Assembly: GCA_964587195.1 (NCBI GenBank)
Contig: CAZPKN010000001.1
Span: 341 to 64,340, forward strand
Origin: an uncultured Gammaproteobacteria bacterium
GTDB taxonomy: Bacteria; Patescibacteriota; Patescibacteriia; Patescibacteriales; UBA12465
Direction: 5' to 3'
Length of the DNA stretch: 64,000 nt
The position numbers and the translations under genes were made by a program. Position 1 is the stretch's first letter. Every line of letters starts with the position of its first letter. Positions 3,827-62,059 of the stretch are shown here, in pieces. The notes below the pieces were generated by a model. The model saw only the letters and a list, made by a program, of their open reading frames with translations. It was not told the DNA's origin and made no database searches.

Positions 3827-3913
3827 GGAGACGTGGCTGAGTGGTTGAAAGCACCGCACTCGAAATGCGGCATACTCGAAAGAGTATCAGGGGTTCAAAT
3901 CCTCTCGTCTCCG
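3827..3913 (+). tRNA. tRNA-Ser (anticodon CGA)
   Basis: Cloverleaf drawn by hand. Acceptor GGAGACG/CGTCTCC, anticodon loop CTCGAAA, long variable arm, T-loop TTCAAAT. CCA is not encoded. Confidence 0.8.
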
Positions 3914-4094
3914 CAGGTAAATTTCAGAACGGATTTATCCGTTCTGAAATTTAGCTTTTGGACAGACAGGAGGATGAGAACCCGAAGGGTTCACACTGCC
4001 GAGGATAGCGAGAGAAATGATAGCTTGCTAGCATTTCCGAGCGACGCAGGCAGAAAGGGCGACAAAGTCGCCCTGCAATCCTCTCGTCTCCGCC
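3914..4094 (+). repeat. tRNA-linked GC-rich module: hairpin, ~140-bp GC-rich segment and a 17-nt duplicate of the tRNA-Ser 3' end (4077-4093)
   Basis: aatcctctcgtctccgc at 4077-4093 is identical to tRNA 3' end 3898-3914. Perfect inverted repeat aaatttcagaacggatttatccgttctgaaattt precedes it. Segment contains gcaggcag, a fragment of the palindrome family seen at other tRNAs. Confidence 0.5.
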
Positions 4095-4275: not shown

Positions 4276-4304
4276 TTGACACGACACTTTAGCTGTGTTA
4301 AAAT
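4276..4304 (+). promoter_or_regulatory. sigma70-like promoter (TTGACA-17-TAAAAT) upstream of HTH gene and hsdM
   Basis: TTGACA at 4276-4281, 17-nt spacer, TAAAAT at 4299-4304. A second TTGACA lies at 4256-4261. Confidence 0.45.
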
Positions 4305-4339: not shown

Positions 4340-4519
4340 ATGACTAAATCGGATAAACTCTTAACGATTGAAGAAGTGGCCGGAATATTGCGGGTCAGTA
4401 CGCGAACTATCGTTAGATATATAGAATCAGGAAAACTAAAAGCCTCGAAAATAGGCGTCTGGAGGATTAAAGAATCAGACGTCCATTTATTTTTAGAAGA
4501 AACTAGCAATAAAAAATAG
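4340..4519 (+). CDS. small helix-turn-helix DNA-binding protein (excisionase/MerR-like HTH_17 family), 59 aa
   Basis: Absent from the ORF track because it is under 60 aa. Translation MTKSDKLLTIEEVAGILRVSTRTIVRYIESGKLKASKIGVWRIKESDVHLFLEE. 'LTIEEVAxxLxVSxxTIxRxIxxGKLxAxKIG' is the classic Xis-type HTH. Confidence 0.55.
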   Translation: MTKSDKLLTIEEVAGILRVSTRTIVRYIESGKLKASKIGVWRIKESDVHLFLEETSNKK

Positions 4520-4532
4520 GTTTATAAATATT

Positions 4533-6110
4533 ATGACAAAATCCACCCATCAAAATAATACTAAAGAACAAGAACGAGCCGAGCTACATCGCGCGATTTG
4601 GCAAATTGCCAATGATTTGCGAGGCGCAGTCGACGGCTGGGATTTTAAACAATATGTTCTCGGCATTCTTTTCTACCGCTTCATCAGTGAAAATTTAACA
4701 AAACATGTTAATAACGAAAAAAATGAAGGCGTCGGCTTTGACTATACAAAATTAGATGACAAAACAGCGGAATTCGGTCGGAAGGAAACGGTTATTGAGA
4801 AAGGTTTTTTTATTCTACCAAGCGAACTGTTTGTAAATGTTTGTAAAAATGCGAGACATAATCCGAATTTAAACGAAACGCTTTCAAAAATTTTCAGCAA
4901 CATTGAAAACTCGGCTAAGGGTTTTGAAAGCGAGGGCGATTTAAAGGGCTTATTCGCTGATTTGGATGTTAATTCTCCGAAATTGGGTAATACGGTTGAT
5001 AAAAGAAATCAGAAATTGGTTAAACTACTTGAAGCTATCGGTGCTCTTCGCTTAGGAAATTACCAAGACAATACCATTGATACTTTCGGCGACGCTTATG
5101 AATATTTAATGAGTATGTATGCTTCAAGCGCCGGAAAATCCGGCGGTGAATTCTACACGCCTCAGGAAGTAAGCGAGCTTTTAGCGGAAATTACCACCGT
5201 CGGGAAAACTGAGGTTAATAAAGTTTATGATCCTTGTTGCGGTTCGGGCTCGCTCTTGCTTAAATTCGCTAAAGTTCTCGGCAAAGATAAGGTTAGGCAG
5301 GGTTTTTACGGCCAAGAAATAAATCTCACGACTTATAATCTCTGCCGTATTAATATGTTCTTACATGACATAAATTATAATCATTTTGATATTGAACACG
5401 GCGATACTTTAACCGACGCGAAACATTGGGATGATGAGCCGTTTGACGCCATAGTTTCTAATCCGCCTTATTCGATAAGATGGGAGGGCGACAGCAATCC
5501 TTTACTGATAAATGATGCTCGTTTTTCGCCGGCCGGCGTTTTAGCTCCGAAAAGTAAGGCTGATTTAGCATTTACTATGCATATGCTTTCCTGGCTATCT
5601 ACGGGCGGAACGGCGGCGATTGTTGAATTTCCGGGTGTTCTCTATCGCGGCGGCGCCGAACAAAAAATTAGGCAATATTTAGTTGAGAATAATTATATTG
5701 ATACAGTTATCCAGCTCCCGCCCGATCTTTTTTTCGGAACTAGTATTGCAACTTGTATTTTGGTTCTTAAAAAGAGTAAAACGGATAATAAAATTTTATT
5801 TATTGATGCTTCGGCGGAGTTTGTTAGGGGCGGAAATAAAAATAAATTAAGCGAAGAAAATCGCCAGAAAATTTTAAAAGCTTTTATAGACAGAAAAAAT
5901 ATAGAATATTTCGCAAAAACGGCTGAGAACCAAAAAGTCGCCGCTAATGATTATAATATTGCTGTTTCAAGTTATGTTGAGCAGGAAGATACTAGAGAAG
6001 TTATTAACATAAAAGAACTGAACCAAGAAATCGTTAAAATTGTTAAAAGACAGAGCGAGTTAAGAAAAGCGATTGATGAGATTGTCGGGGAGATTGAGGG
6101 GAGTAAATAA
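4533..6110 (+). CDS. hsdM: type I restriction-modification system methyltransferase subunit
   Basis: HsdM N-terminal domain (LHRAIWQIANDLRG...YVLGILFYRFISE). SAM motif DPCCGSGSLL. Catalytic NPPY (IVSNPPYSIRW). Confidence 0.9.
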   Translation: MTKSTHQNNTKEQERAELHRAIWQIANDLRGAVDGWDFKQYVLGILFYRFISENLTKHVNNEKNEGVGFDYTKLDDKTAEFGRKETVIEKGFFILPSELFVNVCKNARHNPNLNETLSKIFSNIENSAKGFESEGDLKGLFADLDVNSPKLGNTVDKRNQKLVKLLEAIGALRLGNYQDNTIDTFGDAYEYLMSMYASSAGKSGGEFYTPQEVSELLAEITTVGKTEVNKVYDPCCGSGSLLLKFAKVLGKDKVRQGFYGQEINLTTYNLCRINMFLHDINYNHFDIEHGDTLTDAKHWDDEPFDAIVSNPPYSIRWEGDSNPLLINDARFSPAGVLAPKSKADLAFTMHMLSWLSTGGTAAIVEFPGVLYRGGAEQKIRQYLVENNYIDTVIQLPPDLFFGTSIATCILVLKKSKTDNKILFIDASAEFVRGGNKNKLSEENRQKILKAFIDRKNIEYFAKTAENQKVAANDYNIAVSSYVEQEDTREVINIKELNQEIVKIVKRQSELRKAIDEIVGEIEGSK

Positions 6111-6242: not shown

Positions 6243-7643
6243 ATGAAAATAAAAAAAATTGAATTCTATAACCATAAAATACTAGGAGATTTTGCAATAG
6301 ACTTTTCCGTCGATAATGTTATAAAAAATATTTCATTACTGGTGTCGGAAAATGGATGCGGTAAAACAACTTTATTAGAAGAAATTTATAAAATCTTGAC
6401 AGAGAGTTTTGCTGCCTGGGAGAATGGGCCTAATAAAAAAATAACATTTGAATTTACAGAAGATGAAAAAAATAAATTTAGCTTATCAACACACATATTA
6501 ACCATTGAATACGACAAATCAAAGAGTGAAAATAATATGTGGGGCAGATTTTTTGTTTTTGATGAAAACGGCAATGATATTAGTGCTAGCGCTCGTTCAT
6601 TGTTATATAATAATCCTTTAACTAGTGCTTTTAAATGCGCCTTTTCTACTGTTGAGATAAATTTCGAAAAGAGGTCTATAGAATCAATTAAGGCAACCTC
6701 GATTGACTCTGATGAATTTGTCAAAAATAAATCTACAAACAATATAGCAACAGAAATCTCTCAGTTATTAGTAGATATAAAGAATCAAGATAATGCCGAA
6801 AAGGCTAATCTTTTTGATAGTGGGGCCATAAGCACAGAACAACCGTATGCTGGAAAATTTGATCGTTTTAAGGCGGCTTATTCAAAGATGTTTAATGGAA
6901 AAGAATTGAAAGATGTAATTACCGAAAATAATAATTATAAAATTATTTTTAAAGACTTAAAAAAGAATGTTGAATTTGACATATCCGATCTCAGCTCAGG
7001 GGAAAAACAAATTGTTTATAGGGCTGGTTATTTACTTAAAAACTTACGAGGCATTACTAGCGGAGTAGTTCTTATAGATGAGCCTGAATTAAGTTTGCAC
7101 CCCATATGGCAAGAAAAATATCTTCAATTTATCAGAGAAGTATTCCTTTTAGAAAATAAAAATGATATTCAGTTTGTTATAGCGACTCACTCATTTTTAC
7201 TATTAAAAGATGCTCTAAAAGATGGTATCGTGATTAATATTTTCAGAAAAGATAGCCTAGGTCAAATTTCAGTAATAAATGCAAGAGACAAAGGTTTTGG
7301 TTTATTAAAATGGAGTCCTTCGTGGGGGGAAATATGTCATTTTGCATATGGATTACCAACTATTGAGTTTCACAATGATTTATATTCTGCAATTGAGGAT
7401 AAGTTAAAAAATGATCCATCAGATCGAATCGCCCAAGCTGTATTTGAAAAATATATAAAAGATAACGCCCCAAATACTCCAATAATAAAGTGGAAAACTT
7501 CAAGCGGACACCAAAAAGAAGAGACAATAATGACATTTGTAAGAAACAACATTCATCACCCAGATAACATTGAGAGGCCTAAGGCAGAGCCAGATCAATT
7601 AACAAAGTCTATCCACTATATGCTGAAATTAATTACTAGTTAA
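6243..7643 (+). CDS. ABC-type/AAA_21-like ATPase with uncharacterised ~130-aa C-terminal domain
   Basis: Walker A SENGCGKTTLLEEI, ABC signature-like LSSGEKQ, Walker B VVLIDEPELSLHP, H-loop IATHS. Inserted between hsdM and hsdS. Confidence 0.6.
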   Translation: MKIKKIEFYNHKILGDFAIDFSVDNVIKNISLLVSENGCGKTTLLEEIYKILTESFAAWENGPNKKITFEFTEDEKNKFSLSTHILTIEYDKSKSENNMWGRFFVFDENGNDISASARSLLYNNPLTSAFKCAFSTVEINFEKRSIESIKATSIDSDEFVKNKSTNNIATEISQLLVDIKNQDNAEKANLFDSGAISTEQPYAGKFDRFKAAYSKMFNGKELKDVITENNNYKIIFKDLKKNVEFDISDLSSGEKQIVYRAGYLLKNLRGITSGVVLIDEPELSLHPIWQEKYLQFIREVFLLENKNDIQFVIATHSFLLLKDALKDGIVINIFRKDSLGQISVINARDKGFGLLKWSPSWGEICHFAYGLPTIEFHNDLYSAIEDKLKNDPSDRIAQAVFEKYIKDNAPNTPIIKWKTSSGHQKEETIMTFVRNNIHHPDNIERPKAEPDQLTKSIHYMLKLITS

Positions 7644-7662
7644 TTTTTAAAATAAAATTTTT

Positions 7663-8055
7663 ATGGAAATTATTGAACTCATCTTTTCAAATATTAAAAA
7701 TATTTTCTGGTTAATTTTTGCATTAGCACTTTTAATAGTTGCGATTAAAATAACCTTTACTTTTAATATTAATGAATATTTAAAAATTAGGAAAGGCAAC
7801 ATTGATAATAAAATTAGAAATTGCTGTCCACATGCTCATATTTCTATTGTTGACAACAAGGTAATAGCAGAATCTTCTTTTGTTTCTCCCGTCGGCACAA
7901 CTAATTATATTTGCGAAAGATGTCGGTCAGTTATTTATGTCATGGATAAAGAGAGCGAAAAACAAAGAATAGAGAAATTAGTTAAAAATTTTGACGGATA
8001 TATAAAGCAAGAAAAAAAATTTAAAAAACTTTTAAGGAAAGGTGGATATATTTAA
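7663..8055 (+). CDS. small membrane-anchored protein with CxxH...CxxC zinc-ribbon-like motif
   Basis: N-terminal TM helix (IFWLIFALALLIVAI), then CCPHAH...CERCRS. No recognisable family. Confidence 0.4.
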   Translation: MEIIELIFSNIKNIFWLIFALALLIVAIKITFTFNINEYLKIRKGNIDNKIRNCCPHAHISIVDNKVIAESSFVSPVGTTNYICERCRSVIYVMDKESEKQRIEKLVKNFDGYIKQEKKFKKLLRKGGYI

Positions 8056-8085
8056 TATTTATAAGGTAGGGGCAAATGCAATAGT

Positions 8086-9114
8086 TTGATTAATATGAAA
8101 ATTGAATCAACTAACAACGAAGTGGGAATTGAACTTCATTATAGTTTTAACGATATTGATATTCATTCAATAAACTTTTATATTAGGAATTCTTGCTCAT
8201 TAGCTCAAGCGGAAATTATATCTTACCTAATAAATACTTTATACCCGGATGAGCATTTTGAGATTTTAACATTACCTCCGCAAAAAGGGTCTTTTAACGA
8301 TATAACTATCATAAAATTTTTAAACAAAAATCCCGGGATTATTCTTTCAGTTATTTCTTTAATATTGCCCGCATTACTGTATAATAGCCAGCTTAAAGCA
8401 AATGAAACAACAACAGATTATAATATTTTACAAGTTATTGAAAAATGTAAAGATTTAGATTCCAATTTCCCCGATGAAGTTTTGCAAAAAATAAATAGCA
8501 TTTGCGATTCGTATTATCCCAGAAAACAAAAAAATATTTTTTACGAATCTATAATATCCGATAAAAACATAGTTAGCATTGAGCCGAAGATATTTGCAAA
8601 TGATAAGAATGTTTTCAACGCACAAATAAAGCAAGAAGAGTTTGGAGATTATATAGAAGACATTCCAAAAGAAAAAGAGTTCCTAAAAGTTGAAATGACT
8701 GGCAACATACAATTGTCGCAACCTGTTATTGATAGGCAGCAACAATATGGCAGGGGTTTAGCGTGGAGGGGCGTATACTACGGGAATGATATCTCAGATG
8801 AAAACAATAATCTTATTGTTGAGGATGGTGAAAACATATTTTTTTATATGCAGGATGATGAATATAAAAAACAAATATTAAATCAGGAAATATCGTTTAC
8901 TAGTGGTGATAATATAGGTGTTATTTTTGATGTCAGTCGTTACTATGATTATGTAAATGATAAATTTGGCAAACCTAGATTATACGTGAAAAGAGTAGTC
9001 TCTCACAATGACAACCTCGTACAACACAAAAAGGACCTGGCTTTAAAACAAGAATTAAAAAAATTTGAAGAAAAGAATAAAAACCAGTCATCGCTTTTTG
9101 ATATTATAAAGTAA
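8086..9114 (+). CDS. hypothetical protein (342 aa) with one internal hydrophobic segment
   Basis: Long ORF with no recognisable motif. Hydrophobic stretch PGIILSVISLILPALLY. Very AT-rich. Ends 4 nt before the hsdS start. Confidence 0.4.
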   Translation: MINMKIESTNNEVGIELHYSFNDIDIHSINFYIRNSCSLAQAEIISYLINTLYPDEHFEILTLPPQKGSFNDITIIKFLNKNPGIILSVISLILPALLYNSQLKANETTTDYNILQVIEKCKDLDSNFPDEVLQKINSICDSYYPRKQKNIFYESIISDKNIVSIEPKIFANDKNVFNAQIKQEEFGDYIEDIPKEKEFLKVEMTGNIQLSQPVIDRQQQYGRGLAWRGVYYGNDISDENNNLIVEDGENIFFYMQDDEYKKQILNQEISFTSGDNIGVIFDVSRYYDYVNDKFGKPRLYVKRVVSHNDNLVQHKKDLALKQELKKFEEKNKNQSSLFDIIK

Positions 9115-9118
9115 TGCT

Positions 9119-10300
9119 ATGAAAACTAACCAGCCCAAAATCGAAAAGCTAATTTCAGAACTATGCCCGAATGGTGTGGAGTTTTTGGAAATTGATAGTT
9201 TGTGGATTAGGGCACCAAAATCAAAGCTCGGCGTCGCCCAAGTCAAAGAGCTTGGTGATGGTGAAAACATTTGCTTTACTTCTGGTAAAAATATTTTTTA
9301 TGTCGATAAATATCTTGTTGACGGTGAGTATATTTTTATGAATGATGGTGGAAGCGCTGATACAAAATATAATAAAGGTAAGGCGTATTATACGGATCAC
9401 ACTTTTACATTTACATGTGACAAAATAAAAATATTGCCAAAATTTCTTTATTTTTTCTTAAAAGAAAATGAAAAACATATAAATGATGTTTTATTTAAAG
9501 GAACGGGGTTAAAAAATTTAAATAAAAAAGCATTTGCAAACTTTCAAATCCCCATCCCACCCCTTGAAATACAAGAAGAAATCGTAAAAATTCTTGATAA
9601 TTTTACGGAGCTAGAAGCGGAGCTAGAAGCGGAGCTAGAAGCGGAGCTAGAAGCGAGAAAGAAGCAATATGAGCATTATCGCACTAGTCTTTTCCTAAAG
9701 AATAAAAATAATGAAATTAAGACGCTTGGCGAAGTTTGTTGTATTGGTTCTGGCGGGACACCATCAAAATCAAAGAAAGGATATTGGGAAAATGGAGACA
9801 TCCCCTGGATTAAGTCTGAGTCATGTAAAAATGAATCGGTACGTGTAGCAAATAGTTTTATTACAAGTATTGGTCTTAAAAATTCAAGTGCAAAATTATT
9901 AGATAAAAACACAACATTAATTGCTCTTGTCGGAGCTACTATTTTTAAAACTGCGTTTTTAGAGTTTGAGGCTAGTACAAATCAAAACATAGCAAGTATT
10001 AAATCTAATGACCAATCGATGTTGAGTGATAAGTTTATTTTTTATTATTTAACTAGTCTTTATTCAAGCTTAAAGAATAATATGAAAGATTATGGGATGC
10101 TCAACTTAACAACACTTAGGTCTTTCAAAATCCCCGTCCCACCCATCGCTGAACAAGAACGCATCGTTTCAATCCTTGATAAATTCGATGCCCTTGTTAA
10201 TGATATTTCAATCGGTTTACCCGCTGAACTTAAGGCTCGTCGTAAGCAATATGAATATTACCGAAACAAGCTTTTGATGTTTAAAGAATTAACAAAATAG
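9119..10300 (+). CDS. hsdS: type I restriction-modification system specificity subunit
   Basis: Two target-recognition domains, each followed by a conserved helix (IPIPPLEIQEEIVKILD / FKIPVPPIAEQERIVSILD). Central and C-terminal ...RKKQYEHYR / RRKQYEYYR conserved regions. Confidence 0.8.
   Translation: MKTNQPKIEKLISELCPNGVEFLEIDSLWIRAPKSKLGVAQVKELGDGENICFTSGKNIFYVDKYLVDGEYIFMNDGGSADTKYNKGKAYYTDHTFTFTCDKIKILPKFLYFFLKENEKHINDVLFKGTGLKNLNKKAFANFQIPIPPLEIQEEIVKILDNFTELEAELEAELEAELEARKKQYEHYRTSLFLKNKNNEIKTLGEVCCIGSGGTPSKSKKGYWENGDIPWIKSESCKNESVRVANSFITSIGLKNSSAKLLDKNTTLIALVGATIFKTAFLEFEASTNQNIASIKSNDQSMLSDKFIFYYLTSLYSSLKNNMKDYGMLNLTTLRSFKIPVPPIAEQERIVSILDKFDALVNDISIGLPAELKARRKQYEYYRNKLLMFKELTK
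9608..9655 (+). repeat. perfect 12-bp tandem repeat x4 (gagctagaagcg) encoding (ELEA)4 in the central conserved region of hsdS
   Basis: Four identical in-frame units counted directly. The position corresponds to the spacer-length-determining repeats of type I S subunits. Confidence 0.9.
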
Positions 10301-10301
10301 T

Positions 10302-11390
10302 ATGGAAAAGTTTGATTCCATCGAAAATCTTGCTAAAGAAATAAAAAAGAAATTAAAGGTCACTAAGAAAAAGAAGATAGGAGCTCTTTATGCATTTAAT
10401 TCTACCGGAAAAACAAGATTATCAACGATATTAAATGAATCAAATAGAGAAGATGAGGAAAGCGACGGTAAAATAAAAGTTCTTTGTTATAACGCTTTCT
10501 TAGAAGACATGTTTATATGGGACAATGAGAATTATGTTCTTTCTTTTAATACAAATTCATGGATTGTAAAATTAGTAATTGATCAAGGTTTGGATGGAGA
10601 TATTATTGACAATTTCAAAGATATTATAAACTCAAATATCGAGCCCTCATTTGACTTTACTAATGGGGAAATTGCTTTTAATGTAGTTTCAGGAGATGAC
10701 AACAGTAAAAATAATATTAAAATTTCAAAGGGAGAGGAAAGTATTTTCATATGGTCATTTTTTTATACTATCCTAAAATCCGCAATTGAGACTCTAAACA
10801 TTGAGGAGTCAAATAGGCCTACGCCTGTTTTTAATGACCTAGGGCGCATAGTCATTGACGATCCAGTATCCTCTCTAGATGATACCAAGATAATAACAAT
10901 GACAATTAAGCTTGTGGAAACCATAGAATCATTTGAAGGTGACTCTCTATCGTTCTTTATTGCCACGCATCACGCTTTATTCTACAATATTTTAGTTAAT
11001 TCTTTTAAAAGAAATAGTGGTTGTAATTTTAAATCATACAACCTTATAAAAGATAACTATACCTTTCAACTTTTAAAACAAGGGGACACTCCTTTCTCTT
11101 ATCACCTATCAATAAAAAAAATTATTCAGGAAGCTATAATAGGTAATCATATTGAAAGATATCACTTCAATCTTTTTAGAAGCCTACTTGAGAAAACATC
11201 TACCTTCTTGGGATACGACGATTGGAGAAAATGCGTGCCGAGCGGAAGAAAGGCGGAATTTATAAGACTTCTTAATTTGTATAGCCATGGCAAATTATCA
11301 GATATTGAGAGCAGACAGATGTCTGGAGAGGATAAAATTATTTTTGAAGAAACATTCACTAATTTTGTCTCAGATTTTAAATGGGGTTAA
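10302..11390 (+). CDS. PrrC-like anticodon nuclease (ABC-ATPase N-domain + C-terminal ACNase-like domain)
   Basis: Walker A AFNSTGKTRL, signature-like ISKGEES, Walker B/D-loop IVIDDPVSSLDD. C-terminal R-x3-E (FRSLLEK) and downstream YSHGK, as in the PrrC catalytic triad. Sits between hsdS and hsdR, the canonical prrC position. Confidence 0.55.
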   Translation: MEKFDSIENLAKEIKKKLKVTKKKKIGALYAFNSTGKTRLSTILNESNREDEESDGKIKVLCYNAFLEDMFIWDNENYVLSFNTNSWIVKLVIDQGLDGDIIDNFKDIINSNIEPSFDFTNGEIAFNVVSGDDNSKNNIKISKGEESIFIWSFFYTILKSAIETLNIEESNRPTPVFNDLGRIVIDDPVSSLDDTKIITMTIKLVETIESFEGDSLSFFIATHHALFYNILVNSFKRNSGCNFKSYNLIKDNYTFQLLKQGDTPFSYHLSIKKIIQEAIIGNHIERYHFNLFRSLLEKTSTFLGYDDWRKCVPSGRKAEFIRLLNLYSHGKLSDIESRQMSGEDKIIFEETFTNFVSDFKWG

Positions 11391-11435
11391 TAATATACGA
11401 ATATTACCGAAACAAGCTTTTAACTTTTAAAGAAT

Positions 11436-12311
11436 ATGAATCATAAAATTTCCATCCGTTTTTTTAACGACCGAGAAGTTCGGGCTGTTTGGGATGAAAA
11501 AAATAATAAATGGTTATTTAGTGTATTAGATATTATTGCCGTTCTTACAGATCAAAATAATTACACTAAGACCCGTAACTATTGGAAATACCTCAAGGCC
11601 AAGCTTAAGAAAGAAAAAAGTCAGGTGGTTAGTTCTACTACCCAACTGAAAATTTTGGCAAATGATGGAAAACGGTATTTAACCGATATGCTGGACTATG
11701 ACGGTATTATCGCTTTGGGTAAAAATTTCCCCGGAACAAAGGCTAACCGATTTATTAATTGGTTTACTTTTAGCGACGAGGGTATAGACGGGAAAAGCAA
11801 AACCAAGGCTTATGCTTTGTTCGAAAGTTCGCTAATTAACAACATAGAAATAGGGACCACGAAAGGACTAAAGCAGATTCACGCCTACTTATTCGGCGGT
11901 CTTTATAATTTTGCCGGACAAATTAGAAAAAAGAATATTTCTAAAGGCGGTTTTCAGTTTGCTATGGCGCAGTATTTAGAAAACACACTTCAGCAGATTG
12001 AAAAAATGCCGGAGAAAACTTTTGAAGAAATTGTTGATAAATATGTAGAAATGAATATCGCTCATCCATTTATGGAAGGAAATGGCCGAACGACTCGCAT
12101 CTGGCTCGATTTAATTCTTAAAAAACGCTTAAAAAAATGCGTGGACTGGAGCAAGATAAGTAAGAAGGACTACATCGGTGCGATGATACGAAGCCCTAAA
12201 AACAGTCTAAAACTAAAAAATTTACTAAAAAAATCCTTAACTAACAAAATCAACAATCGTGAAATGTTTATGAAAGGAATAGATTATTCATATTATTACG
12301 AAGAGGATTAA
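11436..12311 (+). CDS. Bro-N domain - Fic/Doc family protein
   Basis: N-terminal Bro-N-like segment ([33 protein letters not shown]). Fic motif [12 protein letters not shown]. Confidence 0.7.
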
Positions 12312-12317
12312 AAAACT

Positions 12318-15300
12318 ATGCCAAACCAAGAACACAGCTCCGCTGAAAATTCGGCGGGAAGTTATAATCTAGTCGCTTCAAGTACTCAAAGCACCGTCGT
12401 GGCTGAGTATGTTTCTGATAAAAAAAGAGCGTTTAAGTATCAAAGCGAAGCCGAACTTGAAAAAGCTTTCATTAAGCAGTTAGAAGCCCAGGCTTATGAA
12501 TATTTAAAAATCGCCTCAGAAGATGATTTGCTTTTGAATTTACGAAAACAGCTCGAAAAGCTAAATGATTATAATTTTAGCGATTTAGAATGGAATCGAT
12601 TTTTTAAAGCCGAAATTGCTAACCAAAGCCAGGGTATTGAAGAAAAAACCGCTACCATTCAGGAAGATTATAAAAAAAATCTAATTCTTGATGACGGCTC
12701 AACTAGAAATATTTATCTCATTAAAAAAGACAGTATCCACGATAATAGTTTACAAGTTATTAACCAATATTCAAGCGAAGATGGCGAACGATTAAACCGC
12801 TATGATGTAACGATTTTAGTAAACGGCCTACCGCTTATCCATATCGAGCTAAAAAGACGAGGAGTAGCCATACAAGAAGCATTTAATCAGATAAATAGAT
12901 ACCAAAGAGAAAGCTTTTGGGCCGCTTCCGGTCTGTTTGAATATGTCCAGTTATTTATTATCTCAAACGGAACCCATACTAAATACTATAGCAATACTAC
13001 CAGATCACAGCACATCAAAGAGTCCGGCGAAGGAAAACAGAAAAAGGGCAGGCGGACAAGTAATAGCTTTGAGTTTACGAGCTGGTGGGCAGACGCCGCT
13101 AATCGGCCGATTACCGACTTAATTGATTTTACTAAAACATTTTTCGCCAAGCATGCCGTTTTAAATATTTTAACAAAATATTGCGTCTTTACCTCGGACA
13201 AATTACTGTTAGTAATGCGCCCCTACCAAATCGTCGCCACGGAAAGAATTTTAAATCGCATCGAAATAAGTACAAACTACAAAAAATTCGGAACCGTTGA
13301 GGCGGGCGGCTATGTTTGGCATACGACCGGGTCCGGAAAAACCCTAACTAGTTTTAAAACCGCTCAGCTTGCTAGCAAATTATCTTATGTTGATAAGGTT
13401 TTGTTTGTTGTTGATAGAAAAGATCTCGATTATCAAACCATGCAGGAATATGACAAGTTTGAAAAAGGGGCCGCAAGCAGTAATGTCAGTACCGCTATTT
13501 TAAAAAGACAACTAGAAGACAGTAGCTCAAGAATTATCGTCACAACTATTCAAAAACTCGATCGCTTTATCGCTAAAAACTCCGGACATACCGTTTTTGA
13601 CGGACATATTGTTATTATCTTTGACGAGTGCCACCGCTCACAATTCGGCGAAATGCACGCCGGCATAGTTAAGGCCTTTAAAAAATATCATCTATTCGGT
13701 TTTACCGGAACGCCGATTTTTGCCGCTAACGCTTCAACCGGCGGTCGTCCCGATTTTAAAACAACCGAGCAGGCTTTCGGTTCAAAACTTCATACCTATA
13801 CCATAGTTGACGCTATTTCCGATAAAAATGTTCTACCTTTTAAAGTCGATTATGTTTCAACTGTCCGCGAAGCCGAAGACATTGAAGATAAAAAAGTTAG
13901 CGATATTGATAGAGAGGCCGTTTTAGCCGCCCCGGAAAGACTCGAGAATATCGTTAAATATATTATTGAACATTTCGACCAAAAAACTAAACGAAATAGC
14001 TTTTATAAACTAAAAGAACGGAGGCTAGCCGGTTTTAATTCAATTTTTGCCGTTAGTTCAATTGAAGTTGCTAAAAAATATTATTTAGAATTTAAAAAAC
14101 AATTAGCCGAAGTTCCGAGCGATAAAAAATTAAAAATAGGAACTATTTTTAGTTTCGGGGTTAACGATGAAGACGGAGACGGAATGATGGATGAAAATTC
14201 CGAGGACACTAGCGGGCTTGATACTAGCTCTAGAGATTTTTTAGAAAGCGCTATTTCCGATTATAATGAAATGTTCGGAACATCTTACGATACCTCCTCC
14301 GATAAATTCCAAAATTACTATAAAGATGTCAGCGAAAAAGTAAAGAAAAGAGAGCTTGATGTCTTAATTGTCGTTAATATGTTTTTGACCGGGTTTGATG
14401 CGACTACTCTTAATACCCTTTGGGTTGATAAAAATCTGCGCTCGCACGGACTGCTCCAAGCTTATTCTAGGACTAACCGCATCTTAAACAGCATCAAAAC
14501 TTTCGGTAATATCGTTTGTTTTAGAAATTTAGAAAAAGCGACTAACGAAGCGATTGCCCTATTCGGCGATAAAGAAGCGGGCGGGATTGTTTTGCTTAGA
14601 TCTTATCAAGACTATTACCACGGCTATAAAGATGGCGATAAAGAATTTCGAGGTTATGTTAGCTTAGTCGACGAGCTAATGGCAAAATTCCCGGTCGGGA
14701 TAAGAATTGATAGCGAGCAAGCGCAAAAAGAATTCATTAATCTCTACGGCGGAATTTTAAGACTAAGAAACATTTTAACAACTTTCGACGAGTTTATCGG
14801 CGATGAAATATTTACCCAATACGATATTCAGGACTATCATAGCATGTACATTGATTTGTATAATGAACTTCGCAAAGTTAAAGAGAGCGAGAAAGAAAAT
14901 ATTAATGATGATATTGTTTTCGAAATGGAACTTATTAAACAAGTTGATATCAATATTGATTATATTTTAAGTCTTATTAAAATCTACCATGAAGATAATA
15001 CAAAAAATAAAGACAGCTTGATGGATATTAATAAAGCGATTGACGCGAGCGTTGAGCTTAGAAATAAAAAAGATTTAATTAACCAGTTTATCAGCTCGCT
15101 TGATATTAATTCAAAGATTGATGAAGATTGGCGGAAATTTGTTGCTGAAAAAAAGATTGAAGAACTGGAAAAAATTATCGCTAACGAAAATTTAGACAAA
15201 GAAGCGACTTATGCGCTTATTGATAACGCCTTTAAAGACGGCTATGTCCCGACTACTGGAACGACTATTACCAAAATTTTACCACCCGTATCAAGATTTT

Positions 15301-15392
15301 CTCCCGACGGAAAAATGACTATTAAGCGCGAAACTGTTCTTAGAAAACTAGCTAGCTTCTTCGACAGATTCTTTGATATTTCTGAGAGGTAG
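12318..15392 (+). CDS. hsdR: type I restriction-modification system restriction subunit (SF2 helicase/endonuclease)
   Basis: 1024 aa. HsdR N-terminal nuclease region, helicase motif I TGSGKT, DEAD-box-like IIFDECHRSQFG, motif VI-like QAYSRTNR. Confidence 0.9.
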   Translation: MPNQEHSSAENSAGSYNLVASSTQSTVVAEYVSDKKRAFKYQSEAELEKAFIKQLEAQAYEYLKIASEDDLLLNLRKQLEKLNDYNFSDLEWNRFFKAEIANQSQGIEEKTATIQEDYKKNLILDDGSTRNIYLIKKDSIHDNSLQVINQYSSEDGERLNRYDVTILVNGLPLIHIELKRRGVAIQEAFNQINRYQRESFWAASGLFEYVQLFIISNGTHTKYYSNTTRSQHIKESGEGKQKKGRRTSNSFEFTSWWADAANRPITDLIDFTKTFFAKHAVLNILTKYCVFTSDKLLLVMRPYQIVATERILNRIEISTNYKKFGTVEAGGYVWHTTGSGKTLTSFKTAQLASKLSYVDKVLFVVDRKDLDYQTMQEYDKFEKGAASSNVSTAILKRQLEDSSSRIIVTTIQKLDRFIAKNSGHTVFDGHIVIIFDECHRSQFGEMHAGIVKAFKKYHLFGFTGTPIFAANASTGGRPDFKTTEQAFGSKLHTYTIVDAISDKNVLPFKVDYVSTVREAEDIEDKKVSDIDREAVLAAPERLENIVKYIIEHFDQKTKRNSFYKLKERRLAGFNSIFAVSSIEVAKKYYLEFKKQLAEVPSDKKLKIGTIFSFGVNDEDGDGMMDENSEDTSGLDTSSRDFLESAISDYNEMFGTSYDTSSDKFQNYYKDVSEKVKKRELDVLIVVNMFLTGFDATTLNTLWVDKNLRSHGLLQAYSRTNRILNSIKTFGNIVCFRNLEKATNEAIALFGDKEAGGIVLLRSYQDYYHGYKDGDKEFRGYVSLVDELMAKFPVGIRIDSEQAQKEFINLYGGILRLRNILTTFDEFIGDEIFTQYDIQDYHSMYIDLYNELRKVKESEKENINDDIVFEMELIKQVDINIDYILSLIKIYHEDNTKNKDSLMDINKAIDASVELRNKKDLINQFISSLDINSKIDEDWRKFVAEKKIEELEKIIANENLDKEATYALIDNAFKDGYVPTTGTTITKILPPVSRFSPDGKMTIKRETVLRKLASFFDRFFDISER

Positions 15393-15467: not shown

Positions 15468-15881
15468 ATGAATGGCTTTCAATATAAAAAAGATTATAAT
15501 TTTTTCTTAAATAAGTTAGCTAAAGGCGATAAAATTTTATTTGCTAAAAAATATCTGAAGTTATTTGATTTTAGAGATCCTAGTATAAAAAGAAAGGAAT
15601 TTAATAAAATTAGGAATAAATTATATAAAAAATTAGTTTTAAAATTTGGCGAACAATGTCAGTTAAAAATTCACCCTGATTGTTTCAAGGAGAAATCTTT
15701 TGATGTTGATCATTTCATTCCTCTCTCAACAAATAAGCTAAATAAGGAACTCAGAAATATAAAAGCAGCAAAAGGGAGAAAGGTTGCGAGTCAAAGTTTT
15801 GGGTCGAATGACATTGCTAATCTAAAAATAGCTTGTAAGAAATGTAATAGCTATAAAAAACATAAACTTTTGTTTAAATAA
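15468..15881 (+). CDS. HNH endonuclease
   Basis: CQLKIHPDC...DVDHFIPLS...IACKKCNSYKKH: two Cys pairs with a His-containing core, typical of HNH. Confidence 0.6.
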   Translation: MNGFQYKKDYNFFLNKLAKGDKILFAKKYLKLFDFRDPSIKRKEFNKIRNKLYKKLVLKFGEQCQLKIHPDCFKEKSFDVDHFIPLSTNKLNKELRNIKAAKGRKVASQSFGSNDIANLKIACKKCNSYKKHKLLFK

Positions 15882-16022
15882 TTAACGACAAAAAGAACTT
15901 AAACACCCCCGACCTAATCAATAAAATTATCACTGAAGTAGAAAGAACGTATAAAAGATATTAAAATTATAATAAATGCAAAAATAAGATAAAATCTACT
16001 TGAATACTATCAATCATCCCCC

Positions 16023-17519
16023 ATGCCACACATAAGCAAAACACAATACCTTGAATACCTCGCCTGCCCTAAGAACGCCTGGCTTAAACAACATAAGCCG
16101 GAGTTGGCTGGCTCTTTTGAGTTATCAGCTTTTGAAAAAAGTTTAGTCGCTAATGGAAATTTAGTTGAAGAGTGGGCCAGAAAACTTTTTCCAAGCGGCG
16201 TTTTAATAGAATCATCTGGCAAAACAGCCGCCTTAGAAACTATTAAATATTTAGAGGTTAAACAGTCGGCTATTTTTCAAGCTACTTTTATCACCGATAA
16301 ATTTCTAGCGCGAGCCGATGTTTTAGAATATGATAGTGAAACCGACTCTTGGAATCTCTATGAAATAAAAGGTACTAATTCCTTGAAAGAAAAAACCGAT
16401 GACAGAGATCATATTGATGATGCCGCTTTCCAATATATAACCCTTGGCGACTGCGGCCTAAAAATTGGAACTATAAATATTATCCACCTCAACAAAGACT
16501 ATATCCGGGGCGATGAAATAAACGTTCAAGAATTATTTGCGATTGATGATATCACTGATAAGATTCTCGAGCGAGAAGAGGCCACTAGAGAAAAAATGTC
16601 GGAAGCCGCTCAGGCTCTTTTTCAAAAAGACGAACGGGCAGTTAATTGCAATTGCATTTACAAAGGACGGAGCAATCATTGCTCAACTTTTAGCTATGCT
16701 CATCCTGAAGTCCCTGAATATGCTATTCATGATTTATACCGCATCGGCCTGAGCCCAAAAAAATTAGCCTCCCTGGTTGATGACAATATTTTTGATCTTG
16801 CCGACGTTCCCTCCGACTTTAAATTATCAGAAGCTCAGCAGAATCAAATTAACGTCTATAAAAGCCAAATGCCGATGATAGATTTAATATCTATTAAAGC
16901 CGAGCTTGAAGCGCTAAAATACCCGCTCTATTTCTTTGATTACGAAACATACCCACCGGCCATTCCCCTTTTTAAAGGCTTTAAACCCTATCAGCATATC
17001 CCCTTTCAATTTTCTCTACACGTCCTAAGCAGCCCGGACAGCGAGCCTGAGCATTACGGATATCTTCATATAGATAATACTAATCCGACCGCAGACATTA
17101 TTAATGCCCTACAAAAATATATCGGCCCCGAGGGAAGTATTATTGTCTGGTATAAGCCGTTTGAACAAACCAGAAATTTGGAATTAGCGCTTTTAAGTCC
17201 TGACAATAGTGAGTTTTTAGCGGATATCAACAACCGCATCTACGATTTAATGGATATCTTTTCCAAACAGCTATACGTCCACCCAAAATTTAAAGGGAGC
17301 ACTTCGATTAAAAAAGTATTACCAGTTTTAGTTCCATCTCTTAATTACCAAGAGTTAGAGATAAAAGAAGGGGGATCGGCCATGGAAGCTTGGTTTGAAA
17401 AAATATTTAATGCCAGTTCAGAAGCAGAGAAAGAAGAAACTGCTAAAAATCTTCTAAAATATTGCGAACTAGACACCTATGCCATGTACGCTATTTGGAA
17501 GGAATTGATGAAAATATAG
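16023..17519 (+). CDS. DUF2779-family protein (RecB/Cas4-like PD-(D/E)xK nuclease N-domain plus C-terminal domain)
   Basis: N-terminus ISKTQYLEYLACPKNAWL matches the DUF2779 'SKSxYxxxxxCPKxxWL' signature. D...EIK motif (ADVLEYDSETDSWNLYEIKG). Confidence 0.55.
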   Translation: MPHISKTQYLEYLACPKNAWLKQHKPELAGSFELSAFEKSLVANGNLVEEWARKLFPSGVLIESSGKTAALETIKYLEVKQSAIFQATFITDKFLARADVLEYDSETDSWNLYEIKGTNSLKEKTDDRDHIDDAAFQYITLGDCGLKIGTINIIHLNKDYIRGDEINVQELFAIDDITDKILEREEATREKMSEAAQALFQKDERAVNCNCIYKGRSNHCSTFSYAHPEVPEYAIHDLYRIGLSPKKLASLVDDNIFDLADVPSDFKLSEAQQNQINVYKSQMPMIDLISIKAELEALKYPLYFFDYETYPPAIPLFKGFKPYQHIPFQFSLHVLSSPDSEPEHYGYLHIDNTNPTADIINALQKYIGPEGSIIVWYKPFEQTRNLELALLSPDNSEFLADINNRIYDLMDIFSKQLYVHPKFKGSTSIKKVLPVLVPSLNYQELEIKEGGSAMEAWFEKIFNASSEAEKEETAKNLLKYCELDTYAMYAIWKELMKI

Positions 17520-60013: not shown

Positions 60014-62059
60014 TTAAACCTTAATAACTACCGGCAAAACCATTGGGCGCCTCTTAGTCGTTTTAAATAAGAATTGACCGATATCGTTCCTGATTTTATT
60101 TTTAATATAATCATCATCAGCGGCTGTCATCGGATTCTTATCTTTGACAATTGTTTTGACCTTAGCACGAGTTTTTTCAATTAAATCGCGGCTCTCTTTC
60201 ATATAGATAAATCCGCGCGAAATAATATCGGGGTTGCCGATTATTGATCCGGTTTTAGAATCAATGGTCGCAATAATAACAATCATGCCGTCATCAGACA
60301 TTAAACGTCTGTCGCGCAAAACAACTTCTGAGACATCGCCTACTCCAAGGCCATCAACCATCACATAGTCTGTATTGGCTTTTTCTTTAAGAACAAGCGG
60401 CTTTTGATTTTTTTGAAAACGGAGAATCTGTCCATTATCAAGAACAAAAACCTGTTCATCTTTAAAGCCTTGCCGAAGCGCTAATTTTTTAGCTTCAACC
60501 AACATATAATGATTGGCGTAAACTGGTAAAAAATAATCCGGCTTAACCTGGCTTAAAATATTTTTAATGTCCTCCGCATTAGCATGGCCGCCGGAATGGA
60601 CATCCATGATACTGCTATGGATAACATGATCGCTTAAGCGGTATAGCTGATCTTTTATTTTTTGGATAGAGCGTTCGTTGCCGGGAATAATCGAAGAGGA
60701 AAAAACGACCGTATCTGACTTTTTAATATTAATATAACGATGATTGCCGTTAACTATTCTAGAAAAAACGGCGTTTGGTTCGCCCTGCGCGCCTGTACAA
60801 ATGACGACAATCTTATTTTCTGGATAATCATGGACTTGTTCGACTGGGATAAGAGTATTCTTATGAGCGGCGATATAGCCTAATTCTTGGGCAATTTTAA
60901 CATTAATCTTCATGCCGTATCCATCCAGGGCTACTTTTTTACCGATTTTTTCAGCATAAGCAATTAAACTAGAAACTCTTTCTAGCTGGGAAGCAAATGT
61001 GCCGATAATCACCCGTCCTTGAGCCTCTCTAATAATCATTTCTAAGTTCGCTAAAGTTGTTTTCGTTGAAACTCGTTCCTTAGAATAGGCGACTCCTAGA
61101 CTTTCTAGCATCAAAATACGCGGCGCCGGCAGGGAAGCGAGGTGTTTGTAATCAACTACGCCAGACCCATTATCATCATATTCTATCATCCAGTCGCCAG
61201 GATGGATAACGGTTCCATGCGGAGTCTTAATAATTACGCCGACGGCATCAACAATAGAATGCTCGACTTGAAAAAAACTAATTTTAAACTTACCAAGCGC
61301 TATTTCTTGATTAAGGGAGTTTATCGTAATGGTTTTTAAATTCTTAGTTGTGCCTTTTTTATAATCTTCTTGTCGATGTTTAATCATCGCTAAAGTAAGC
61401 TTGCGTCCGACAATAGGCGGATTACCTAATTGCTCCAGTAATATCGGGGCTGCCCCGATATGATCAAGATGACCATGACTAAAAATAACCCCGCGGATAT
61501 TTTTTTTCTTATTTTTTAAATAATCAACGTTAGGTACTATATAATCGACTCCCGGCATATCTTCATCGGCAAACTGCATCCCCATATCAAGAATGATTAT
61601 ATCGTCTTCATATTCAAAAATGGTGCAGTTGCGTCCGACCTCCTCTTGCCCGCCCAGAGGAATAATCCTTAAAGATGCTTCTGAAATATTTTTACCGCCG
61701 GAAAAAGATGGCTTAGAAACAGTTTTTACAGGAGCTAAATTTCTCTTATTAATAAACGTCGGCTTGTCTCCAAGCTTCGAACGATTAGAGGTCGAAAAAT
61801 TTTTTTTACCGGTTTGATAGTTTTTTTTATCTCCCGAATAACGGTTATTCTGGCGGTTCACATTAACCGGGGATGATTTAATAATCGATGGACGCTTTCC
61901 GCCGCCGACTATCATATCGGAAGCTAAAAAAGCCTCCAGTCCGCGACTGGATGCCGGTACCGACCCTTGAGGGGCGGCTTTCTTTTGAGTGGCGTTGAAA
62001 TTTTTTGTTCCAACAAACCTTTTCCGAGCATTATTCGGATTTGATTGCTTAACTAGCAT
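60014..62059 (-). CDS. rnj: ribonuclease J (metallo-beta-lactamase/beta-CASP RNase) with basic N-terminal extension
   Basis: HGHLDHIGAAP motif (GVIFSHGHLDHIGA), beta-CASP region, about 560-aa core, preceded by a ~120-aa Lys/Arg/Asn-rich extension. Confidence 0.8.
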   Translation of the reverse strand: MLVKQSNPNNARKRFVGTKNFNATQKKAAPQGSVPASSRGLEAFLASDMIVGGGKRPSIIKSSPVNVNRQNNRYSGDKKNYQTGKKNFSTSNRSKLGDKPTFINKRNLAPVKTVSKPSFSGGKNISEASLRIIPLGGQEEVGRNCTIFEYEDDIIILDMGMQFADEDMPGVDYIVPNVDYLKNKKKNIRGVIFSHGHLDHIGAAPILLEQLGNPPIVGRKLTLAMIKHRQEDYKKGTTKNLKTITINSLNQEIALGKFKISFFQVEHSIVDAVGVIIKTPHGTVIHPGDWMIEYDDNGSGVVDYKHLASLPAPRILMLESLGVAYSKERVSTKTTLANLEMIIREAQGRVIIGTFASQLERVSSLIAYAEKIGKKVALDGYGMKINVKIAQELGYIAAHKNTLIPVEQVHDYPENKIVVICTGAQGEPNAVFSRIVNGNHRYINIKKSDTVVFSSSIIPGNERSIQKIKDQLYRLSDHVIHSSIMDVHSGGHANAEDIKNILSQVKPDYFLPVYANHYMLVEAKKLALRQGFKDEQVFVLDNGQILRFQKNQKPLVLKEKANTDYVMVDGLGVGDVSEVVLRDRRLMSDDGMIVIIATIDSKTGSIIGNPDIISRGFIYMKESRDLIEKTRAKVKTIVKDKNPMTAADDDYIKNKIRNDIGQFLFKTTKRRPMVLPVVIKV

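Follow-up and report, generated by a model that had tools for sequence, protein, structure and literature searches.

Does the open reading frame that directly follows hsdS in a type I restriction-modification (R-M) operon encode a latent anticodon nuclease of the PrrC family, and would it, if so, be governed in the way that its Escherichia coli namesake is? The question arises for a gene, here called prrC, at positions 10302–11390 (+ strand, ATG start, TAA stop, 362 aa) of a 64,000-nucleotide stretch of contig CAZPKN010000001.1, the whole of which we refer to as the window. The hallmarks of a PrrC nuclease are cleavage of tRNA in the anticodon loop, silencing by an R-M enzyme, and activation, involving GTP hydrolysis and dTTP, by an anti-restriction factor. 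In our assessment, which is based on sequence comparison, 10302–11390 very likely encodes such a PrrC-type latent anticodon nuclease, the predicted guardian of the surrounding type IC R-M enzyme. The gene is one more member of a well-known family, and it leaves the current understanding of PrrC unchanged.

Family assignment and functional residues

The assignment is carried first by full-length profile and pairwise matches. The PADLOC PrrC profile PDLC02360 aligns to residues 10–361 of the product (profile positions 20–346 of 372) with an E-value of 3.8e-97, whereas the runner-up PADLOC model reaches only 2e-7, some 90 orders of magnitude weaker. Pfam AAA_13, a family that covers PrrC/RloC-type proteins, is found at E 6.3e-13, and no NCBIfam model matches the product. 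As a reference for E. coli PrrC (EcoPrrC) we used a 396-aa E. coli protein whose gene is annotated “anticodon nuclease” and lies between genes annotated “restriction endonuclease subunit S” and “HsdR”; because all 40 residues checked stand at their literature-numbered positions, and the peptide KYGDSNKSFSY occupies residues 284–294, we regard this reference as a valid EcoPrrC. The window protein (window PrrC) is 38% identical to it over 357 aa (BLASTP, E 9e-76), in an alignment that crosses the nuclease domain to residue 334. An earlier note on this DNA, which had read the gene as PrrC-like, had named generic ABC similarity with no match to the anticodon nuclease domain as the outcome that would tell against it; what the searches return is coverage of that domain by both profile and reference.

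The product divides into an N-terminal ABC-type NTPase (approximately residues 1–255) and a C-terminal nuclease (approximately residues 258–362), and the motifs quoted in the earlier note are all present, in the order seen in PrrC and RloC. All lie on the + strand. The Walker A motif or P-loop, AFNSTGKTR (10392–10418, with NSTGKT at residues 33–38), supplies K37, T38 and R39, which correspond to EcoPrrC K46, T47 and R48 and are invariant in 73/73 family members examined. It is followed by the PrrC box, YNAFLEDMFIWDNE (10488–10529, residues 63–76), an acidic and aromatic motif unique to PrrC that spans EcoPrrC residues 68–94, with E88, W93, D94 and N95 essential (PMC1484252); E68, W73, D74 and N75 are their counterparts here. 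The ABC signature region, IKISKGEES (10716–10742, with ISKGEES at residues 141–147), retains K140 and K143 (EcoPrrC K168 and K171). In the Walker B motif and D-loop, IVIDDPVSSLDDTK (10848–10889, with IVIDDPVSSLDD at residues 183–194), D186, D187, S190, S191, D193 and D194 are kept (EcoPrrC D215, D216, S219, S220, D222 and D223), and T195 and K196 replace EcoPrrC N224 and H225 at two positions that are variable in the family. The switch region with its linchpin His, ATHHALFYN (10962–10988), provides T222, H223 and N229 as equivalents of EcoPrrC T250, H251 and N257.

In the nuclease domain, Arg320, Glu324 and His356 have been implicated in EcoPrrC catalysis by Blanga-Kanfi et al., who also described the family-specific PrrC box (PMC1484252), and mutational data are available for the helix that bears the first two (PMC1484252, PMC3025547). 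In the window this active-site helix reads HFNLFRSLLEK (11163–11195, with FRSLLEK at residues 292–298), in which H288, R293, E297 and K298 match EcoPrrC H315, R320, E324 and K325, and S294 replaces N321. It is followed by a HEPN-type R-x6-H motif, RLLNLYSHG (11265–11291, with SHG at residues 328–330), which contributes R322, N325, S328 and H329 for EcoPrrC R349, N352, S355 and H356. The distance from E297 to S328 is 31 residues, in agreement with the spacing of about 30 aa that the earlier note had given, and the triad that it proposed from the R-x3-E and SHG elements maps exactly, at identical spacing, onto R320/E324/H356. The same holds more broadly: EcoPrrC H295, H315, R349 and N352 are also identical at identical spacing, and the nuclease-domain residues H268, K272, H288, R293, E297, R322, N325 and H329 are all retained at a constant offset of −27 from EcoPrrC numbering.

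Two alignments place these matches in the context of the family. Meineke et al. identified 33 residues needed for EcoPrrC toxicity (PMC3025547); in an alignment of 36 sequences, 26 of the 33 are identical in window PrrC, the Arg-Glu-His triad R293/E297/H329 among them. In a wider alignment of 74 sequences (73 full-length homologues from named genomes plus E. coli), window PrrC keeps 51 of the 52 columns that are conserved at 95% or more, every catalytic candidate included. Window PrrC is otherwise 34 residues shorter than EcoPrrC, with a shorter N-terminus, acidic insert after Walker A, C-terminal tail and recognition-peptide stretch.

The setting is that of the E. coli prr locus, hsdM(prrA)-hsdS(prrB)-prrC-hsdR(prrD), which encodes the type IC enzyme EcoprrI; the two-domain PrrC, the PrrC box, the 1-nt gap to hsdS and the type IC-like surroundings are common to both. 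In the window the TAG stop of hsdS (10298–10300) is separated by one base from the prrC ATG at 10302, just as the earlier note had stated. On the other hand, the canonical position between hsdS and hsdR that the note had also assigned to the gene holds in part: both hsd genes flank prrC on the same strand, with hsdS 1 nt away, but a Bro-N/Fic gene separates prrC from hsdR, which starts 928 nt downstream. The locus differs from E. coli prr in this Fic gene and in three cargo genes between hsdM and hsdS.

Points against the assignment and competing readings

Several observations weigh against this assignment, or against the corollary that the protein is held latent as in E. coli. At seven EcoPrrC-essential residues the window protein differs (N224T, H225K, K245S, E262S, H297S, N321S and a change of D276 that appears as N or as Y according to the alignment used), and at one of these, K245, the Ser of the window protein stands where 89% of the family have Lys. 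Some PrrC homologues, from Neisseria and Xanthomonas, are non-toxic in yeast (PMC3025547), so a protein may belong to the family without showing the same activity in each assay. A fold search with the C-terminal domain by itself finds no significant solved relative. The separation of prrC from hsdR may give the operon a stoichiometry and coupling unlike those of E. coli. Finally, a near-identical assembly (L002, ENA ERZ724084) carries in hsdR a single-nucleotide polymorphism and the loss of one A (AAA to AA), at window positions ~13927 and ~13989, which leave open reading frames of 564 and 402 aa beside an intact prrC. This frameshift reflects either misassembly, at ~6x coverage, or a variant that naturally lacks functional hsdR (hsdR-null); if it is real, intact HsdR may not be strictly needed for silencing, and such a variant would be of interest, the R-M complex being thought to silence PrrC.

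The residue changes also bear on the idea that the gene is a decayed or catalytically inactive relic, carried along on a horizontally acquired R-M cassette. The seven substitutions, with a replacement of K245 by Ser that is rare in the family, are what such decay might leave, and a remnant of an hsdS tail downstream of prrC (described below) is a sign of rearrangement at the locus. All seven positions, however, vary across the family, with the E. coli residue at frequencies of 0.22–0.89 in the 74-sequence alignment, and the Streptococcus mutans PrrC, which is toxic in yeast, has Met at H297. The reading frame is intact and full-length, the conserved columns and catalytic candidates are retained as described above, and an identical prrC product is recovered from several independent samples. 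We reject the pseudogene or relic reading on the strength of the intact frame and the conserved catalytic candidates, and regard it as improbable.

The structural results raise a different prospect, namely that the protein is a generic ABC/SMC-type ATPase devoid of nuclease function. A confident AlphaFold2 model built from the family alignment (mean pLDDT 83.2, pTM 0.70) shows an α/β N-terminal domain and an all-helical C-terminal domain, and a whole-chain Foldseek search of the PDB with this model matches only Rad50, SMC and cohesin or ABC ATPase heads, a result uninformative for the nuclease domain. Searching PDB sequences, whether from the protein alone or from a profile of 34 sequences, returns nothing at E up to 1, and no PrrC or RloC structure is found. 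These findings, with the non-significant C-terminal fold search, are what speaks for a generic ATPase. With no PrrC or RloC structure apparent in the PDB, though, a missing match is to be expected, and the PrrC match spans the entire nuclease domain with its catalytic residues at identical spacing. Full-length PADLOC and EcoPrrC matches and an aligned triad leave the generic-ATPase reading effectively refuted. The Rad50 and SMC fold matches agree, moreover, with the published description of the PrrC N-terminal domain as SbcC/Rad50-like, in work that assigns the nuclease domain to HEPN (PMC3710099); because the C-terminal fold search gave no significant solved relative, the HEPN assignment of the window domain rests on the R322-x6-H329 motif and the literature. 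HEPN domains are helical bundles that carry an R-x(4-6)-H motif. As a compact (362 aa) and divergent family member, window PrrC could serve structural work.

A third reading takes the product to be a self-regulated, RloC-like anticodon nuclease that acts independently of the R-M enzyme. In RloC, too, an ABC-ATPase is joined to a nuclease domain, which is homologous to that of PrrC and has its Arg-Glu-His residues (PMC3025547, PMC3458546). RloC-type proteins fall within AAA_13 as well, relatives have in some sources been named “wobble nucleotide-excising tRNase”, and the frameshifted hsdR beside an intact prrC in L002 would suit an enzyme that needs no R-M partner. RloC is distinguished, however, by a long coiled-coil and zinc-hook insert, is about twice as large, is rarely R-M-linked and excises the wobble nucleotide. 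Window PrrC has no CxxC motif, and the ~100 residues between its Walker A and signature motifs leave no room, in a protein of 362 aa, for the coiled-coil insert that defines RloC (PMC3458546). Neither does the linkage fit: rloC is rarely found beside R-M genes (PMC3458546), whereas prrC is tightly and conservedly linked to hsdS and hsdR. With the margin of the PADLOC PrrC match in addition, an RloC identity is rejected and must be considered very unlikely.

Regulation and substrate of the putative nuclease

For the PrrC-type nuclease, then, a mechanism can be proposed from the E. coli precedent. EcoPrrC is made together with the R-M subunits and is kept latent by binding to the type IC complex; an anti-restriction factor lifts this block, and hydrolysis of nucleoside triphosphates (NTPs) by the dimerised N-terminal domains activates the C-terminal domains (PMC3458546, PMC12707154). 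By homology, window PrrC would be made together with HsdS and held inactive by binding to HsdMSR (PMC3458546, PMC1484252). A phage anti-restriction factor that disables HsdMSR would release the block, NTP hydrolysis by head-to-tail dimerised N-terminal domains would switch on the C-terminal domains, and the active nuclease would stop translation and so abort the infection. The T4 protein Stp, the trigger in E. coli, is not expected to be relevant in the window host, which belongs to Patescibacteria and not, like E. coli, to Enterobacteriaceae.

The probable substrate is a tRNA, either tRNA-Lys or another. Where EcoPrrC has its lysine-anticodon recognising peptide (LARP) and an essential His, window PrrC has QGDTPFSYH (11079–11105, +), in which D262 corresponds to D287 and Y267/H268 to Y294/H295 of EcoPrrC. 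Aligned, it reads Q-GDT--PFSY as compared with KYGDSNKSFSY in E. coli; it is shorter, with 5 of 11 residues identical, and does not qualify as a LARP. This departure leaves real, if lesser, room for the view that window PrrC acts by the same mechanism on some tRNA that is not tRNA-Lys, or on a wider range of tRNAs, the more so as the tRNA-Lys recognition residues are kept only in some PrrC homologues and diverse substrate specificities have been proposed (PMC1484252). LARP in fact marks a tRNA-Lys-specific subset of PrrCs and not the family as a whole (PMC3025547). Yet the key Asp of the recognition peptide, D287, is kept as D262, in the shorter stretch typical of most family members, and Ser288 is conservatively replaced by Thr. 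In the wider alignment the minority form is the long one of E. coli, and the short one recurs in homologues from streptococci, Saccharibacteria and archaea. The S. mutans PrrC, with a LARP that is likewise little conserved, is, like EcoPrrC, toxic in yeast (PMC3025547).

Relatives, transfer and host

A genome scan limited to one genome per species finds a PrrC relative in at least 596 genomes, from which the best 80 loci were fetched. Nearly all of these have, on the same strand as prrC, an HsdS match that ends shortly before it and an HsdR match that begins shortly after it. An upstream open reading frame can be identified at 73 loci; at 41 of them, and in E. coli (TGA-C-ATG), the 1-nt gap between stop and ATG recurs, and because of this recurrence the 1-nt hsdS/prrC junction can be regarded as a conserved trait of the family. 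Such a junction is consistent with translational coupling of prrC to hsdS, which we infer for the window as well.

The best genome matches (49–55% identity) come from Pseudomonadota, Verrucomicrobiota, Methanosarcinales, Flavobacteriaceae and Peribacteria; their HsdM and HsdR are 70–79% identical. Because the closest relatives are scattered in this way across bacterial and archaeal phyla, the comparison indicates that the whole R-M/prrC module has been transferred horizontally. prrC itself is more AT-rich than its surroundings (G+C content 0.31, compared with 0.37 for the whole window).

The host is, judged from a housekeeping RNase J gene at 60014–62059 (− strand), a member of Patescibacteria, the Candidate Phyla Radiation (CPR): the closest named relatives of this marker are labelled “Patescibacteria group bacterium” and, in one case, Falkowbacteria, with named matches 75–81% identical and one match labelled only “bacterium”. 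The RNase J relatives bear out the CPR-like host that the earlier note had suspected; its view that such a host would be notable fares less evenly. We found no paper discussing PrrC in Patescibacteria, but homologues are already present in public genomes of Saccharibacteria, Peribacteria and Parcubacteria. The same hsdS-prrC-hsdR context is seen in three Saccharibacteria genomes (L020, L024 and L026), one from Peribacteria (L012) and archaeal metagenome-assembled genomes (L007 and L009), and a protein of Parcubacteria LiPW_41 (P0012), in the same context, is 62% identical to window PrrC. These CPR and diverse loci belong to the same family (39–62% identity) and share both gene order and the short LARP form. 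Cargo genes separate hsdM from hsdS at several of them, as a HATPase_c_3 gene does in the Parcubacteria locus L166. In them, as in the two closest relatives examined (one of which is Parcubacteria LiPW_41), prrC directly abuts hsdR; unlike the window, none of the 80 loci has a Fic gene in the gap or a duplication of the hsdS tail.

A CPR host extends the known host range of PrrC and reveals no new mechanism, similar CPR loci being already public and the family already recognised by automated tools. The host, a probable episymbiont whose genome is very small, maintains a costly, multi-layered defence operon of ~11 kb that combines type IC restriction, a predicted abortive-infection tRNase, a Fic toxin and candidate defence genes, and the operon bears on how CPR bacteria, which largely lack CRISPR, cope with phages.

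The Bro-N/Fic gene and the operon around prrC

The gene that separates prrC from hsdR (11436–12311, +) encodes a 291-aa Bro-N and Fic protein, a toxin of AMP-transferase type (Pfam Fic E 2.4e-14, Bro-N E 5.2e-5). It matches the NCBIfam NmFic-type model at 279.8 bits (cut-off 230 bits) and PADLOC PDC-S04 at E 4.4e-161, and its product has an HPFMEGNGR motif and, at the place of the class III Fic inhibitory helix, a C-terminal SYYYEE. R-M operons that combine ABC-HEPN proteins with Fic/Doc or RhuM toxins have been described by Anantharaman et al. in 2013 (PMC3710099). The window resembles these in having a PrrC-type gene and a Fic-family toxin in one R-M operon; it differs in that its Fic is an NmFic-type Bro-N fusion preceded by a remnant of hsdS. 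This remnant is the second copy of a 41-nt direct repeat that brackets prrC and is the longest direct repeat within the 12-kb region. Copy 1 (10249–10289, +) is the genuine 3' end of hsdS; copy 2 (11395–11435, +), 90% identical, is an hsdS C-terminal remnant whose stop overlaps the fic start codon (ATG at 11436).

Neither the repeat nor the Fic gene is a general feature of prrC loci. Among the 80 related prrC loci no hsdS-tail duplication is found, only two chance-level matches of 12–13 nt. Relatives of the Fic gene occur at a minimum of 589 metagenomic loci, of which the best 80 (76–85% identity) were examined; they lie mostly outside type I R-M loci, and none has an hsdS remnant. A mobile toxin gene would not usually be as well conserved as that range of identity among the best 80 implies. 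A type I context is found among the examined Fic loci only in L095 and L147, the latter with an unrelated hsdS upstream. L095 has the order hsdM-hsdS-(IS200-like)-fic-hsdR with no prrC, and its HsdM and HsdR are 81% and 78% identical to those of the window. At two proteobacterial and verrucomicrobial prrC loci the gap between prrC and hsdR is filled by a RhuM-family gene (L049, 9130–10215; L084, 4155–5195); that of L049 matches Pfam Virulence_RhuM at E 3.8e-100.

The simplest reading of this arrangement is that the ancestral order was hsdS-prrC-hsdR and that a segment made up of an hsdS tail and fic was later recombined in from another type IC locus, in which fic would have followed hsdS directly. 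The 41-nt repeat looks like a recombination scar that joins two cargo-bearing type IC loci, and in the leftover hsdS tail the shuffling of effector genes between type I loci has left a tangible mark. A bolder extension, which we consider doubtful, is that the type IC enzyme may guard two latent toxins in tandem, the PrrC tRNase and a Bro-N/Fic protein that arrived with the last 16 codons of another hsdS. The slot after the hsdS stop would then be a modular, recombination-prone docking site that translationally couples interchangeable guardian effectors (PrrC, Fic, RhuM) to the R-M complex, and Fic, like PrrC, would be regulated by the status of the restriction enzyme.

The hsd genes themselves are type IC-like, as judged from an EcoR124_C domain in HsdR, the identity of HsdM and HsdR to the E. 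coli prr subunits, and tandem repeats in HsdS. hsdM (4533–6110, +) encodes a methylase subunit with Pfam HsdM_N and N6_Mtase, 57% identical to the HsdM of the E. coli prr locus. The specificity subunit encoded by hsdS (9119–10300, +; Pfam Methylase_S, E 1.6e-53) is 33% identical to E. coli prr-type HsdS, with the conserved regions shared, and the 1024-aa restriction subunit encoded by hsdR (12318–15392, +) has Pfam HSDR_N, ResIII, T1R_D3-like and EcoR124_C domains and 43% full-length identity to its E. coli prr counterpart. The central conserved region of HsdS contains (ELEA)4, encoded at 9606–9653 (+) by a 12-nt unit present in four perfect tandem copies; the corresponding site of the E. coli prr-type subunit has (TAEL)2. 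In the type IC enzymes EcoR124I and EcoR124II the copy number of such HsdS repeats sets the spacer length of the recognised sequence, and the (ELEA)4 repeat is a possible phase-variable specificity switch.

Between hsdM and hsdS lie three AT-rich, defence-like cargo genes (6243–9114, +). These encode a PtuA/AAA_21-like ATPase of 466 aa (6243–7643, +; PADLOC PtuA E 1.2e-31, Pfam AAA_21 and AAA_15), a 130-aa protein with Cys/His pairs (7663–8055, +) and a PDC-S42 candidate of 342 aa (8086–9114, +; PADLOC PDC-S42 E 7.8e-22). At the head of the operon, before hsdM, is a gene for a 59-aa HTH_17 protein (4340–4519, +; Pfam E 3.1e-16), and a promoter scan places the best promoter-like site at 4276–4304 (+), with 11 of 12 positions matched and a TG extension; terminator-like sites are no commoner than in shuffled sequence. 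From the promoter and terminator scans and the short intergenic gaps on one strand, we infer a single long operon.

Upstream of this operon, the last 17 nt of a tRNA-Ser(CGA) gene (3827–3914) are repeated exactly 163 nt downstream (4077–4093), where 0 matches would be expected by chance. Such a repeat resembles the att-type scar that integration at the tRNA would leave, directly before the R-M operon. As a boundary of an R-M island the tRNA-Ser 3' end was rejected, since its sole second copy lies only those 163 nt downstream and there is no third copy in the window. On the other side of the operon, 3' of hsdR and on the same strand (15468–17519, +), are genes for a 137-aa HNH-motif protein and a 498-aa DUF2779 protein (Pfam), which may belong to the same island.

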